Below are positions 35,338 to 39,237 of a stretch of 64,000 bases of DNA, piece by piece (within the stretch, counting starts at the first letter, position 1; every line of letters starts with the position of its first letter). The position numbers were made by a program, and so were the translations under genes. The notes under the pieces are model-generated. The model was not told where the DNA came from. It saw only the letters and a program-made list of their open reading frames with translations, and ran no database searches. The DNA comes from an uncultured Actinomycetes bacterium (GTDB lineage Bacteria; Actinomycetota; Thermoleophilia; UBA2241), in NCBI GenBank assembly GCA_963725665.1, contig CAVRZA010000004.1:1-64000 (forward strand), read 5' to 3'.

Positions 35338-35448
35338 CCTCCCAGAAGCGACGAAAGCCTCCAGGAACGGCGCGTCCGCGCGCCACCGCTGGAGGCTCGC
35401 AGCCGCTGTGGCCGGCACGTCGGTGTCGGCCGAGGCCGCGGGTGCAGC
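35338..35448 (-). ncRNA. Putative cis-regulatory leader RNA / attenuator, copy 1 (CoA-transferase operon)
   Basis: TATCAT -10, 6 nt, GCTGCAC..CGCGGC/GCTGCG stem..GAGCCTCCAG-loop-CTGGAGGCTT-TCGTCGCTTCT; matches the element at 39130-39237. Confidence 0.6.
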
Positions 35449-35483
35449 GCGGCAATGATACTCCCTTTGCTAGACTACGCGCC

Positions 35484-35876
35484 ATGAACAGCTTTCTGTT
35501 CTCCGGCTACGCGCGGTTGCCGCAGGATGTCTCTCACCAGGCTCTCTACAAGCGCGTCGGGGTCGTCGTCGAGGTCGACCAGAAGGGGCGCATCATCCAC
35601 TGTTCGTGCACCCTCATCATGGACCTCGCGCGCGACTTCCTGAATCGCCTGCTCGCGGGCCGTTCGGTGATCACTGAGCGCGACGTGATCGAGAGCGAGC
35701 TGCGCTACCGCTACCGCGGACACTCGCAGAGCGCCCTTATCTTCGCCTTGCGCAAGGTCTTCGAGGCCGTCGACCAGTCGCCGCTCGTGCTCGGCGAGGC
35801 CGCCGACGGGGCCGAGGGCGACCAGAACAGCCGGTCGTCTCGCGGTGTGCAGGCCAGCCAGCAGGCGCCCGCCTAG
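35484..35876 (+). CDS. DUF3870-like protein
   Basis: FSGYARLPQ..VGVVVEVD..GRIIHCSCTL pattern; TAGACT 7 nt before the ATG and no SD, so possibly leaderless. Confidence 0.72.
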   Translation: MNSFLFSGYARLPQDVSHQALYKRVGVVVEVDQKGRIIHCSCTLIMDLARDFLNRLLAGRSVITERDVIESELRYRYRGHSQSALIFALRKVFEAVDQSPLVLGEAADGAEGDQNSRSSRGVQASQQAPA

Positions 35877-36078
35877 AGACCGACCGCGCTCACCCGTTTT
35901 GCTCGCCAGCTTGAGCTCTTGGTCGTCGTCCTGCCTAGTGCTCCGAGCCACCGCGGCGCAGTGCTTGCCGGCTTCTGCACCCGAGCGGCGCACGACGACC
36001 TCCCGGCTGTCGACGTCGTCCCCAGGGCCACCTCGTACGGCTCCTTGTCTTCGCACACTGGGCAGGGCTTACCCGTTG

Positions 36079-36136
36079 TTGACAGGGACGCGAACCGCCA
36101 CATAGGGTAGATTCTCATTAAAGCGCATAGAAATTA
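36079..36136 (+). promoter_or_regulatory. cysK promoter with downstream AT-rich imperfect palindrome (possible Rrf2/CymR-type site)
   Basis: TTGACA-N18-TAGGGT, then ATTCTCAT-TAAAGCGC-ATAGAAATT. Confidence 0.5.
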
Positions 36137-36210
36137 TCATGAATCGCCCTCGGATTGGGAAGACTGTGGCTGCATCACCTGCCACGGGTCAACGACAAGG
36201 ACAGGAGAGC

Positions 36211-37158
36211 ATGGCCATCGCGGACAACATCTCGGATCTGATAGGTAGCACGCCACTCGTGCGCCTGCGGCGGGCGTCGGAGGAGACGGGTGCGATGATC
36301 GTCGGCAAGCTGGAGTCGTTCAATCCCGGTGGGAGCGTGAAGGACAGGATCGGCCTGTCGATGATCGACGCCGCCGAGAAGGCCGGGGTCATCACGCCGG
36401 GCAAGACGACGCTCATCGAGCCGACTAGCGGCAACACCGGCATCGCGCTGGCCATGGTGGCCGCTGCACGTGGCTACCACCTGGTGTTGACCATGCCCGA
36501 GACCATGTCCATCGAGCGTCGCAGCCTTCTCAAGGCCTACGGCGCCGCGCTCATCCTCACCCCCGGCGCGCAGGGGATGAAAGGGGCCATTGCGAAGGCC
36601 GATGAGCTGCTGGCAGAGACGCCGGACTCGTTCGTGCCGCAACAGTTCGAAAACCCGGCCAACCCTGAGGTGCACCGTCAGACGACAGCGGAGGAGGTCT
36701 GGCGGGATACCGACGGCAAGGTCGACATCTTCGTCGCTGCTGTCGGGACGGGAGGCACGATCACGGGTGTAGGTGAGGTCATCAAGGCGCGCAAGCCGGG
36801 CTTCTTGGTCATAGCCGCCGAGCCCGACGCGTCGCCTGTGCTCTCCGGTGGGGAGCCCGGGCCGCACAAGATCCAGGGGACCGGAGCCGGCTTCGTGCCC
36901 AAGGTCCTCAACACCGACATCTACGACGAGATCATCCGCGTGCCCAACGAGGTCGCCTTCGAGACGGCGCGCAGGTTGGCTACCGAGGAAGGCATCCTCG
37001 TCGGCATCTCCGCCGGGGCCAACGTGTGGGCGGCCACACAGGTGGGCCTGCGCTCCGAGCACGAGGGCAAGCTGATCGTGACCGTTCTCTGCGATACCGG
37101 GGAGCGCTACCTATCCACCCCGCTGTTCACAGAGCCCGAGGAGACGGCCAGCCCGTAG
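36211..37158 (+). CDS. cysK: Cysteine synthase A (O-acetylserine sulfhydrylase)
   Basis: [19 protein letters not shown] lysine, [34 protein letters not shown]. Confidence 0.95.
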
Positions 37159-37236
37159 GGACGGTGGTCAGGGCCGCGCTGTCGGCGCCACGATTGCGGG
37201 GGTGCTGGCCGACTGGCTAAGGTCGCCAGCAGCAGA

Positions 37237-38672
37237 TCAGCGTGACCGGGCGGCCTCTTCGTCGGCCACTGAGAGCGCCTGGTCGAGGATCGAGAGTCCC
37301 GCCGTGAGCTCGTCGCGGTCGATCGTCAGCGGCGGCGCGACCATGAGCACGTTCCAGTGGGCGAAGAGGAAGAGGCCGCGCTCCATGGCGGCCTGCGCCA
37401 CGTGGGCGACCGGGGCAGCCGCCTCGCCGCTGGCGCCGAAGGGCACGAGCGGCTCGCGGCTGCCCCGGTCGCGCACCAGCTCCAGGCCCCAGAAGAGCCC
37501 CAGCCCGCGCACGTCGCCGACCGACGGGTGGCGCTCCGCCAGCTCCGCCAGCTCCGCCCCCAGCACCGAGCCGAGCTCGGCCGCGTGCTCGACCAGTCGT
37601 TCCTCACGGATCGTCTCGATCGTCGCCACGCCGGCGGCGCAAGCCAGCGGGTTGCCGCTCGACGTGAGGCCGCCGGGGAAGTAGCGCTCGCGCAGCGGTT
37701 CGGCGATCCGTTCTGAGACGATCATCGCCCCCAATGGCACGTAGCCCGAGCCGATCCCCTTCGCCACGGTCATGATGTCGGGCACGACATCCCAGTGCTG
37801 GGCAGGCGAACCAGCGGCCGGTGCGGCCGAAGCCGGTCATCACCTCGTCGAGGATCAGCAGGATGCCGTGCCGGTCGCACACCTCGCGCACCGAACGCAG
37901 ATAGCCGGGGGGCGGCACGATGACGCCGTTCGTGCCCGTCACGGTCTCGAGCACGACGGCGGCCACGGTCTCGTGGCCCCTCGTACTGAAGGACCTCCTC
38001 GAGATACGGAGCGCCAGAGCACACCGGGCAGGGGTCGGGATGCCCGACCGGGCAGCGGTATGTGTAGGGATCGAGGATGTGGACGACCCCCGGGATGCCG
38101 GGCTCGGCCGGCCAACGTCGCGGGTCGCCGGTCAGCGCGATGGCCCCCGCCGTGGCGCCGTGGTAGGAGCGGTAGCGGGCGAGGATCTTGTGGCGTCCCG
38201 TATGCAGGCGGGCGATCTTGATCGCGTTCTCGTTGGCCTCGGCGCCGCCGTTGGTGAAGAACGACATCGTGAGGTCGCCGGGGGTGACCTCGGCGAGCAG
38301 GCGGGCGAGCTCTGAGCGCTTCGCGTTGGCGAACGCCGGCGCGGCGACGCAGAGCTCGCCCGCCTGCTCTTTGATCGCCGCGACGATACGCGGATGCCCG
38401 TGCCCCAGGCTCGCATTCACGACCTGCGAGCCGAAGTCGAGGTAGCGCCTGCCGTGATAGTCCCAGAAGTAGCTGCCGCGCCCGCCGGCGATCGGCAGCG
38501 GGCTGATCTGCGACTGCACCGACCAGGAGTGGATCACGTGCCGGCGGTCGAGGTCGAAGACGCGCCGGCCCTCGTCGGGGTCGAAGACGGGGGCCAGTCC
38601 CGCGCCGACCGGTGCCTCCGCGGGTGAGGCCTCGGGGACCGGTTGCGGGGGATCGGGCTCGCGCTGGGTCAT
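37237..38672 (-). CDS. Class III PLP aminotransferase (omega-amino acid type), frameshifts near 37970 and 37800
   Basis: [33 protein letters not shown] and PDIMTVAKG are spread over three frames. Confidence 0.85.
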
Positions 38673-38762
38673 GCGCCAAGCATACGTGAACGGGAAACGG
38701 TTGCGGGAACGAGGCTCGCCGGGCAAGAGGACTCTCATCCGTAGTACTGGCAAGGGAGTCTC

Positions 38763-39062
38763 CATGTCCGCGATCAGCGCACCCCGCGCCGACCTCTCAG
38801 GGTACGTCGCGCGCGCGGCTACAACCTCATGGCCGTCGCACTCCTCTTCCTCGGCGCCCTCGCCGTAGCCGCGGTGGTCCTGCAGGTGATCGGCGTCATC
38901 GCGGAACGGTCCGACTCGGCGGAGCCGCGCGACAACATCGGCGGCATGATCCTGTACGTGCCGCTGCTGGTATTCCTCCTCATGCAGTACTCGCGCACGC
39001 GCGACATACTCGATCGGGCGGAGGTCGAGGAAGGCCGGCTGATCCAGTTCCCAGCCGCCTGA
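38763..39062 (+). CDS. Small two-TM hypothetical protein (probable frameshift near 38815; alternative start 38829)
   Basis: AAGGGAG RBS before ATG 38763; hydrophobic ORF 38829-39062. Confidence 0.55.
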   Translation, partial: HVRDQRTPRRPLRVRRARGYNLMAVALLFLGALAVAAVVLQVIGVIAERSDSAEPRDNIGGMILYVPLLVFLLMQYSRTRDILDRAEVEEGRLIQFPAA

Positions 39063-39073
39063 GCGGGGGATGC

Positions 39074-39110
39074 GCGGGCGGCGGCGCGCATCTTGCGCGC
39101 CGCCGCCCGC
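39074..39110 (+). terminator. GC-rich hairpin downstream of the small membrane gene
   Basis: Perfect 17-bp inverted repeat GCGGGCGGCGGCGCGCA-TCT-TGCGCGCCGCCGCCCGC. Confidence 0.65.
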
Positions 39111-39129
39111 CTTACGATAGAATGCAACC

Positions 39130-39237
39130 GCTGCACGAATAGCTTGGTCCGCGGTACCGTCTCTGCCGCTCCGTCTTCGGCTATGAGCCTCCAGCAAGCG
39201 CAGAAGCGTGCCCTGGAGGCTTCGTCTTTTCTTGGGG
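39130..39237 (+). ncRNA. Putative cis-regulatory leader RNA / attenuator, copy 2 (acyl-CoA dehydrogenase-fix operon)
   Basis: TAGAAT -10, 6 nt, GCTGCAC..ATAGC/GCTAT stem..GAGCCTCCAG-loop-CTGGAGGCTT-CGTCTTTTCTT. Confidence 0.62.

Follow-up and report, generated by a model that had tools for sequence, protein, structure and literature searches.

The stretch analysed here (the window) comprises 64,000 nucleotides of contig CAVRZA010000004.1 from an uncultured bacterium of the class Thermoleophilia (Actinomycetota). It contains two operons for the metabolism of coenzyme A (CoA) esters, each headed by a structured leader RNA of about 108 bases with a built-in terminator. Leader A (35448->35338, minus strand) heads the genes for CoA-transferase subunit A (34241-35242, minus; family I, of GctA-like size; Pfam CoA_trans, E = 1.5e-27; start at TTG 35242 or GTG 35215) and subunit B (33475-34236, minus; Pfam CoA_trans, E = 9.9e-32). 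Leader B (39130-39237, plus strand) heads an operon whose first gene encodes an acyl-CoA dehydrogenase with the Pfam Acyl-CoA_dh N, M and C domains (39347-40576) and is followed by fixC (40647-42068), fixX (42135-42428) and the genes for electron-transfer flavoprotein (ETF) beta (42471-43265) and alpha (to 44218), all on the plus strand. The best NCBIfam matches of the dehydrogenase, all below cut-off, are acryloyl-CoA reductase, cyclohexanecarboxyl-CoA dehydrogenase and the glutaryl-CoA dehydrogenase Acd. The gene calls of both operons agree with those of an earlier sequence-only reading of the window. A gene for a protein of 130 amino acids belonging to the DUF3870 family (domain of unknown function; 35484-35876, plus; PF12986, 79.2 bits against a cut-off of 22, E = 2.8e-22) is divergent from leader A, its start lying 36 nucleotides (nt) from the predicted +1 of that leader.

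The leaders were read on both strands of the window sequence, and every element that the sequence-only reading had listed was found, including a TANNNT -10 box followed by exactly 6 nt and by GCTGCAC with G at +1 in both copies. In leader A, the box TATCAT (35460-35455) stands before the G at 35448; in leader B, the box TAGAAT (39118-39123) stands before the G at 39130. The RNAs begin with GCUG (A, 35448-35445; B, 39130-39133). This is followed by a long-range helix, P1, which is CGCGGC/GCTGCG in leader A (35440-35435 with 35403-35398) and ATAGC/GCTAT in leader B (39139-39143 with 39180-39184). P1 encloses an inner hairpin, P2, formed by GGCCG/CGGCC in leader A (35431-35427 with 35414-35410) and by 39151-39156 with 39164-39169 in leader B, where the loop is CCGUCUC (39157-39163). 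The terminator arms, which make a 10-bp stem, lie at 35398-35389 and 35364-35355 in leader A and are followed by a pyrimidine tail and GGG; the same stem is found in leader B at 39185-39194 and 39213-39222. The U-rich tail extends to about 35341 in leader A and covers 39221-39233 in leader B. The tetranucleotide CAGC, which overlaps the 5' arm of the terminator, is located at 35391-35388 and 39192-39195, respectively.

The stem pattern common to the two leaders occurs twice in the window and in none of 100 shuffles, and it was found nowhere else in the genome (3.73 Mb, 12 contigs). A simple promoter and terminator scan of the window flagged neither leader, as its rules (a loop of 3-8 nt and a TTGACA-like -35 element) do not fit them. 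Directly upstream of leader B, a G+C-rich perfect hairpin (39075-39114, plus) includes the -35-like TTGCGC of this leader; its only Rfam matches are at chance level (mir-718 and Scr3202), and it may serve as the terminator of the genes inserted before it.

A covariance model (R1) was built from leader B and the sequences of three relatives, in which a blastn search with leader B had matched the terminator half upstream of the orthologous dehydrogenase gene. The search of the genome with R1 recovered copy A at E = 1.4e-6, the next best match having E = 0.19, while copy B itself scored 108 bits. As copy A had been left out of the model and was matched all the same, it provides an independent confirmation. 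R1 matches were present in 66 of the 89 genomes of the same taxonomic family of Thermoleophilia. The model was rebuilt on 45 sequences (R2; copy A, 58.1 bits) and applied to a sample of the class, where it matched 16 of 25 genomes of the family f1, 2 of 25 of the family f4 and 0 of 100 from the remaining families. No match was obtained in 150 other genomes sampled across the phylum. Two R1 matches (L077 and L078), which have no promoter and lie in other gene contexts, were dropped from the counts as false positives; meanwhile, the match L069:3318 was kept as a true member despite its spacer of 9 nt, because of which the regular expression for the promoter had missed it.

A permissive scan of the region 33000-41500 against the 4227 models of Rfam 15 (E <= 10) gave 13 matches, all of them at chance level. 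The only one inside a leader was htlv_FSE on the stem of copy B (20.3 bits against a gathering score of 45, E = 3.5). This agrees with the sequence-only reading, which recognised no validated riboswitch class in the leaders. The suggestion that they could belong to an orphan motif such as caiA found no support, since no model matched the leaders beyond the chance-level htlv_FSE at E <= 10, in a library whose content of a caiA model was left unchecked. No account of such a leader was found in the literature as judged by titles and abstract openings, and the papers naming DUF3870 were unrelated.

To check the promoter, the 55 bases upstream of all 54 matches from one search were aligned. TANNNT precedes the G of GCTGC in 51 of them, at a distance of 6 nt (39 matches), 7 nt (10) or 8 nt (2), and 48 of these 51 also have a TTGnnn -35 element, mostly TTGCGC or TTGCAC, at 16-19 bases. 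The alignment indicates that transcription of all true members would start at GCUGC of a sigma-70-type promoter. A sigma-54 reading of GCTGCAC was rejected, as the GG at -24 is absent and no TTGC at -12 is in register. Also rejected was a palindromic operator around the -10 box, which was seen in two loci only (L031 and L043), with different spacing.

The members share one layout: GCUGC, a P1 of 7 bp, a variable P2, the 3' strand of P1, 1-3 bases, the segment (G/A)CCCCCAGC(G/A), a small apical stem mostly capped by stable tetraloops, CUGGGGG and the U-rich tail. The segment (G/A)CCCCCAGC(G/A) is almost invariant across the family alignment. The P2 loop is CCGUCUC in many copies of the dehydrogenase type and another pyrimidine-rich loop elsewhere. 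An alternative pairing of P2 as AGACGG/CCGUCU was discarded because its 5' partner varies without compensation, whereas a stem of the type GGGCG/CGCCC with a 7-nt loop fits all members. The terminator stem and the U-rich tail, which is broken up by C and G, are kept in 45 of 45 aligned members. The terminator hairpin is CCUCCAG/CUGGAGG in the window and CCCCCAG/CUGGGGG in the relatives; the window copies alone among the 45 have U-A in place of a C-G pair, both sides of it having changed.

In the alignment of the 45 sequences fitted to the model, 95.8% of the cells were paired and two-sided changes were seen in 17 of 23 pairs. None of 500 column shuffles reached this pairing, and sliding the partners by 1-3 columns lowered it to 37-48%. 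As this alignment leans towards the covariance model, MAFFT and RNAalifold were also run without any model. With 5 sequences, P1 and the terminator were predicted, and 10 of 29 pairs were compensated; with 30 sequences, P1 (compensatory changes in 5 of 7 pairs) and the terminator stem were predicted again. The covariation of the long-range helix, noticed earlier between the two copies of the window, thus holds across relatives by both alignment approaches. The leaders contain a conserved structured domain with covariation, as is expected of a riboswitch, and a G+C-rich hairpin with a U-rich tract between the promoter and the first gene, as is expected of any attenuator based on an intrinsic terminator. 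A leader peptide was rejected, since no conserved open reading frame (ORF) could be read in the alignment, which was inspected without a formal ORF scan. AUG occurs only within the 3' arm of P1 and is absent in several members (e.g., L031 and L034); its frame relative to the C-run varies and no Shine–Dalgarno sequence precedes it.

The genes downstream of the matches were tabulated as well. The dehydrogenase gene lies directly downstream of the leader in all 29 top loci. In 20 further loci, 28 of 30 matches, lying in 18 of the loci, were true, 14 of them standing before a dehydrogenase gene, 13 before the gene for CoA-transferase A and 1 at the end of a contig. The expected enrichment upstream of genes of CoA metabolism was therefore borne out. 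The matches, the pairing and the gene contexts together uphold the view that the leaders form a structure-conserved RNA family with a terminator that heads CoA-ester operons. We conclude that they are a previously undescribed family of terminator-based leader RNAs and hold it for very probable that this is a genuine, conserved cis-regulatory structured RNA.

In the relatives, the canonical module has the order CoA-transferase B <- A <- leader | DUF3870 -> leader -> dehydrogenase, with 500-770 bases between the two leaders. The DUF3870 gene is placed outside both attenuators, as a gene for their regulator would be. The window departs from this module by an insert of about 3.2 kb (36139-39100) between the DUF3870 gene and leader B, which contains a cysteine-synthase-like PALP gene, an ORF of 160 amino acids with no Pfam match and a class-III aminotransferase gene. 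According to the sequence-only reading, no DNA-binding regulator lies beside either operon. For the known DNA-binding families, as judged by Pfam on the neighbouring ORFs tested, this stands, although leader A is adjoined by the gene of a protein family with no known function.

The presence of the RNA was compared with that of DUF3870. All 16 RNA-positive genomes of f1 in the class sample have DUF3870. The 8 genomes of this family that lack DUF3870 also lack the RNA, as does one more genome, whose sole DUF3870 is a divergent paralog. Of the 150 genomes sampled across the phylum, one has DUF3870 and none has the RNA.

The family f4 has diverged leaders, which occur in the order DUF3870, leader and family III CoA-transferase. 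They keep the 5' GCUGCAC, P1 and P2, and the C-run with CAGC, while the 3' arm CUGGGGG is lost. One f4 locus has a different terminator, and in another a downstream segment is complementary to the 5' tail. A further leader of the same build precedes a SucC-like gene, and one more was found before a GctA-like gene on a contig that has no DUF3870 gene (L097, genome G126). Since f4 keeps the C-run with CAGC without the 3' arm, this segment appears to be part of the sensor as well as of the terminator.

Leaders of like build were also found in Bacillaceae. For this, 80 loci were gathered with a single Peribacillus DUF3870 protein as the query. Among them, 49 have the glutarate hydroxylase gene csiD (PF08943), whose start is some 300-700 bases downstream of the DUF3870 gene in 43 loci. 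The usual order at csiD loci is GntR/FCD, an L-2-hydroxyglutarate-oxidase-like gene, DUF3870, a gap and csiD. In other loci, DUF3870 and a gap are followed by CoA-transferase III and acyl-CoA dehydrogenase genes, and in further ones CoA-transferase III and dehydrogenase genes precede DUF3870. For the transferase of Priestia megaterium S2, the best NCBIfam match, below cut-off, is succinate–glutarate CoA-transferase. The gaps after DUF3870 contain conserved leaders built like those of the window: a tail and covarying P1 and P2 are followed by a purine-rich junction with GC(C) at its end, by four nucleotides that can pair with the tail, and by a terminator. Examples from Bacillaceae and Effusibacillus lie at L109 4340-4670, L147 4330-4570, L181 1280-1470 and L189 4300-4470 (minus). 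No Rfam match at the gathering score was obtained in 5 Bacillaceae loci.

The tail and its partner differ between the leader classes. They are ACUG/CAGU before csiD and in Effusibacillus, where all five pairs of the helix that they form (P0) are standard in 25 of 25 aligned sequences, UGACU/(A/G)GUCA before CoA-transferase III and AGCUG/CAGCU before an operon of DUF819, epimerase and peptidase genes. The csiD-type leader also has a strongly conserved internal loop, UGUGA / CRGUGAA, which we presume might be a kink-turn-like protein site. A model of this leader (R3) was searched in 67 genomes of that Bacillaceae family. It matched 27 of them, all among the 38 DUF3870-positive genomes, and none of the 29 DUF3870-negative ones. 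Four of the 27 R3-positive genomes lack csiD. In four genomes, the R3 match and a DUF3870 gene are on the same strand and about 1.4-2.6 kb apart; in one of the four, the only csiD is on a different contig. By its distribution, the csiD-type leader seems to track DUF3870 and not any one enzyme, although all 24 csiD-positive genomes are also DUF3870-positive, so that csiD and DUF3870 are inseparable there.

Taken together, we propose that each leader is a transcription attenuator. Transcription would begin at the G of GCUGCA and, by default, end about 110 nt downstream at the hairpin CCUCCAG/CUGGAGG and its U-rich tail. In the alternative fold, the 5'-terminal GCUG would pair with CAGC at the top of the 5' arm of the terminator. 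This helix, P0, would take the top three pairs of the terminator and close a long P0-P1-P2 hairpin, whose asymmetric internal loop, with CA(C/U)(A) on one side and (G)(A/G)N-CCCC on the other, would contain the invariant C-run. The possible antiterminator pairing of GCUG with CAGC had been pointed out in the sequence-only reading, and it remains the best candidate: the two segments are invariant or compatibly changed (CAGU, CGGC) across the members, and P0 can be formed in all of them. The best available support comes from the compensatory changes of the tail and its partner between the leader classes.

The two folds were compared with ViennaRNA on 43 sequences, as the regular expression had passed over two of the 45; two bases upstream of +1 were included. 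The full-length RNA favours the terminator fold by a mean of 6.7 kcal/mol (-50.1 vs -43.4), and P0 is present in the minimum-energy fold of 26 of the 43 transcripts cut just before the 3' arm. In copy A, forcing P0 costs 4.1 kcal/mol, and P0 forms in the truncated RNA. As the alternative fold alone is less stable, a factor would be needed to stabilise it and so let the polymerase read through into the CoA-transferase and the acyl-CoA dehydrogenase/ETF genes, as in an inducible antiterminator. The favoured candidate for this factor is DUF3870, which would act as an effector-responsive RNA-binding antiterminator, perhaps sensing glutarate or a related acid or CoA ester. Switching through a P0-closed antiterminator is somewhat more probable than not. 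The assignment of DUF3870 as the trans-acting factor, drawn from its association with the leaders, is tentative. To the whole explanation, an attenuator with a P0 switch and DUF3870 as the favoured factor, we give a probability of roughly 45%.

Several observations weigh against this explanation. P0 has only 4 bp, and both its strands are nearly invariant, so that covariation within the family is uninformative; moreover, forcing it in copy B costs 9.1 kcal/mol (-30.3 vs -39.4), and it is absent from the minimum-energy fold of the truncated copy B. DUF3870 was found in only 16 of the relatives' 29 loci (each +/-1.5 kb), and its co-occurrence with the RNA is confounded by synteny, as the cluster of leader, DUF3870 and enzyme genes moves as a unit. 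The AlphaFold2 model of DUF3870, made with an alignment of 67 sequences (predicted local distance difference test score, 90.1), has three strands and four helices and no recognisable nucleic-acid-binding fold. Its best PDB match by Foldseek is IscU (template modelling score 0.47, E = 1e-3), and it is also weakly like the capping domains of enolase-superfamily enzymes. A sequence search of the PDB gave nothing below E = 0.6, and the best score in a protein atlas search, 0.83, lies under the 0.9 level and is a lead only. Nor is the domain generally basic: the median isoelectric point is 6.4 and exceeds 8 in 17 of 67 members, with a value of 9.4 for the protein of the window. Finally, R2 gave no match on 21 Bacillaceae loci. 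Therefore, a common descent of the leader classes is not demonstrated, and their likeness across phyla is one of architecture only.

The DUF3870 family is of modest extent, with 206 clusters at 50% identity, and Bacillaceae have up to six matches per genome. Some Peribacillus paralogs lie inside operons, namely before ureA and, in catabolic operons, after a dehydrogenase gene or between catB and a thiolase gene; the latter two positions would be expected of an enzyme or an accessory subunit, and this too speaks against a regulator. The pattern would fit a regulator with paralog-specific targets, and a small accessory protein would fit as well. In Peribacillus G236, a DUF3870 paralog (L191 4183-4521, minus) lies between a muconate-cycloisomerase-like gene and a thiolase gene, whose start it overlaps, in a catechol/beta-ketoadipate cluster. 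We take this to be roughly the position where muconolactone isomerase is expected, so that some paralogs may be enzymes or accessory proteins. A broader idea is slightly less probable than the role of DUF3870 as such. In it, DUF3870 would be the first of a new family of small effector-sensing RNA-binding antiterminators, each paralog recognising the 5'-closed hairpin of its cognate leader and relieving an intrinsic terminator, and the DUF3870–leader pair would have passed as one unit between the Thermoleophilia of the Actinomycetota and the Bacillota, where it would control the catabolism of glutarate, dicarboxylates and acyl-CoA.

The chief rival is a metabolite ON riboswitch. Here a pathway metabolite, be it glutarate, a dicarboxylyl- or acyl-CoA, or CoA itself, would be bound directly by the internal loop that separates P0 from P1; the P0-closed hairpin would gain stability, termination would be prevented, and DUF3870 would be a pathway protein and not the sensor. 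Apart from the missing nucleic-acid-binding fold of DUF3870, this reading is favoured by the covarying helices, the invariant unpaired and junction nucleotides, the terminator platform, the two copies per genome on functionally related operons, the lack of known regulator domains (Pfam) beside the operons of the window and the leader of G126 on a contig with no DUF3870 gene. Even so, we consider it somewhat less likely than DUF3870 as the factor. The conserved core (tail, C-run and CAGC) is very small, P2 and its loop vary freely, and the three leader classes are alike in architecture and hardly in sequence, whereas a common binding pocket should keep more. Like leaders also precede unrelated functions (csiD, CoA-transferases, a SucC-like ligase and the DUF819/epimerase operon), and the RNA-positive genomes are all DUF3870-positive in both lineages (16/16 and 27/27).

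Control at the DNA level would require that a repressor or activator, either DUF3870 or an unlinked factor (e.g., of the TetR family), binds GCTGCA at +1 and/or the conserved -35 region, with the hairpin serving for constitutive partial termination or for RNA stability. The fixed position of GCTGC relative to the -10 box agrees with this, as do the inverted copy of the motif that flanks the box in some relatives (L031 and L043) and a TetR-family gene about 2.3 kb past the last gene of the operon in genome G005. The inverted repeat is not kept, being absent in L035 and in both window copies and differing in spacing where present, while the covariation in P1, P2 and the apical terminator stem reflects selection on RNA pairing. 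Furthermore, no TetR or other transcription-factor domain was found among the flanking window ORFs tested, and the corresponding tail in Bacillaceae is found a long way downstream of the promoter, which leaves this mode of control improbable. Still less probable is an element without any switch, whose stem-loop and terminator fix the basal level of expression or give rise to a small RNA of about 110 nt, descent being the only reason for their conservation. In its favour, the terminator fold was thermodynamically the most stable in every case examined, and the family is taxonomically narrow. Yet catabolic operons with a strong terminator directly behind their strong conserved promoter would be silent unless it is relieved, and in f4 the tail and the C-run with CAGC are retained although the 3' arm is lost, which points to a second function of these segments. 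Even taken together, DNA-level control and a constitutive element are distinctly unlikely.

The proposed attenuator with its DUF3870-stabilised P0 has counterparts among the leaders of Bacillota that depend on antitermination proteins, such as HutP at hut, LicT–SacY at RAT, GlpP and ANTAR/EutV. Like these, the leaders described here are promoter-proximal, contain a putative hairpin that overlaps the 5' arm of the terminator and would need stabilising for read-through, and serve catabolic operons; as with HutP and hut, the gene of the candidate regulator lies immediately upstream of a leader. Unlike them, they show no readable RAT sequence, UAG repeats or pair of hexaloop hairpins, the neighbouring genes encode no CAT/PRD, HutP or ANTAR domain by Pfam, the predicted fold of the candidate protein, a DUF, is unrelated to theirs, and the proposed antiterminator would use the extreme 5' end of the transcript. 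Membership in the ANTAR, RAT or HutP types was thus rejected, as neither the cognate RNA signature in the leaders nor the protein domain in the neighbouring ORFs was found. With transcriptional ON riboswitches the leaders share covarying helices, conserved junction nucleotides, a terminator that would compete with the closing helix of a sensor domain and several copies on related operons; they differ in having no Rfam match, a tiny core and a strict tie to one protein family. The caiA RNA, an orphan motif of Clostridia, precedes acyl-CoA dehydrogenase genes, and the likeness is limited to the position upstream of acyl-CoA dehydrogenase and ETF-type genes, given the Rfam result above. Glutarate catabolism in Pseudomonas and E. 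coli (csiD-lhgO, gcoT-gcdH) is controlled by CsiR, of the GntR family, and GcdR. The kinds of target are alike (glutarate hydroxylase, CoA-transferase and acyl-CoA dehydrogenase), whereas CsiR and GcdR are DNA-binding transcription factors and the conserved element here is an RNA leader with a terminator.

Some other features of the region should be mentioned. The class-III aminotransferase gene of the insert (37237-39314, minus) is split over three frames, with positions 9-164 of the Pfam profile in 37770-39314, 192-250 in 37604-37966 and 252-403 in 37237-37785, owing either to the frameshifts of a pseudogene or to indel errors of the assembly. Downstream of the ETF alpha gene, a Peptidase_S15/PepX_C gene (44112-46246, minus) likewise lies in three frames, and split tblastn matches were also seen in several of the relatives' loci, which suggests that the assemblies in this lineage are indel-prone. 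The aminotransferase region contains an inverted repeat (38294-38370) with arms of about 21 bp and a spacer of 35 nt, which gave chance miRNA-like Rfam matches on both strands. Directly after the CoA-transferase operon, and convergent with it, lies a pair of genes for a Phd/YefM antitoxin and a PIN-domain toxin (32697-33376, plus). In the relative G016, an IS21-type transposase pair (rve/Mu-transposase C and IstB; L196 1911-4141, minus) is located about 4 kb from the leader module.

The RNA family described here is new, while its probable regulatory kind, attenuation, is known. It adds to an almost uncultured actinobacterial class a well-supported cis-regulatory RNA family for which the promoter, start, structure and targets are defined, and it ties this RNA to DUF3870, a protein family of no known function. 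Like leaders stand beside DUF3870 in cultivable and tractable Bacillaceae (Peribacillus and Priestia megaterium), which makes the choice between an antiterminator and a riboswitch directly testable. Either answer would be new: a family of antiterminator proteins, or a class of riboswitches for the catabolism of C5-dicarboxylates or CoA esters.

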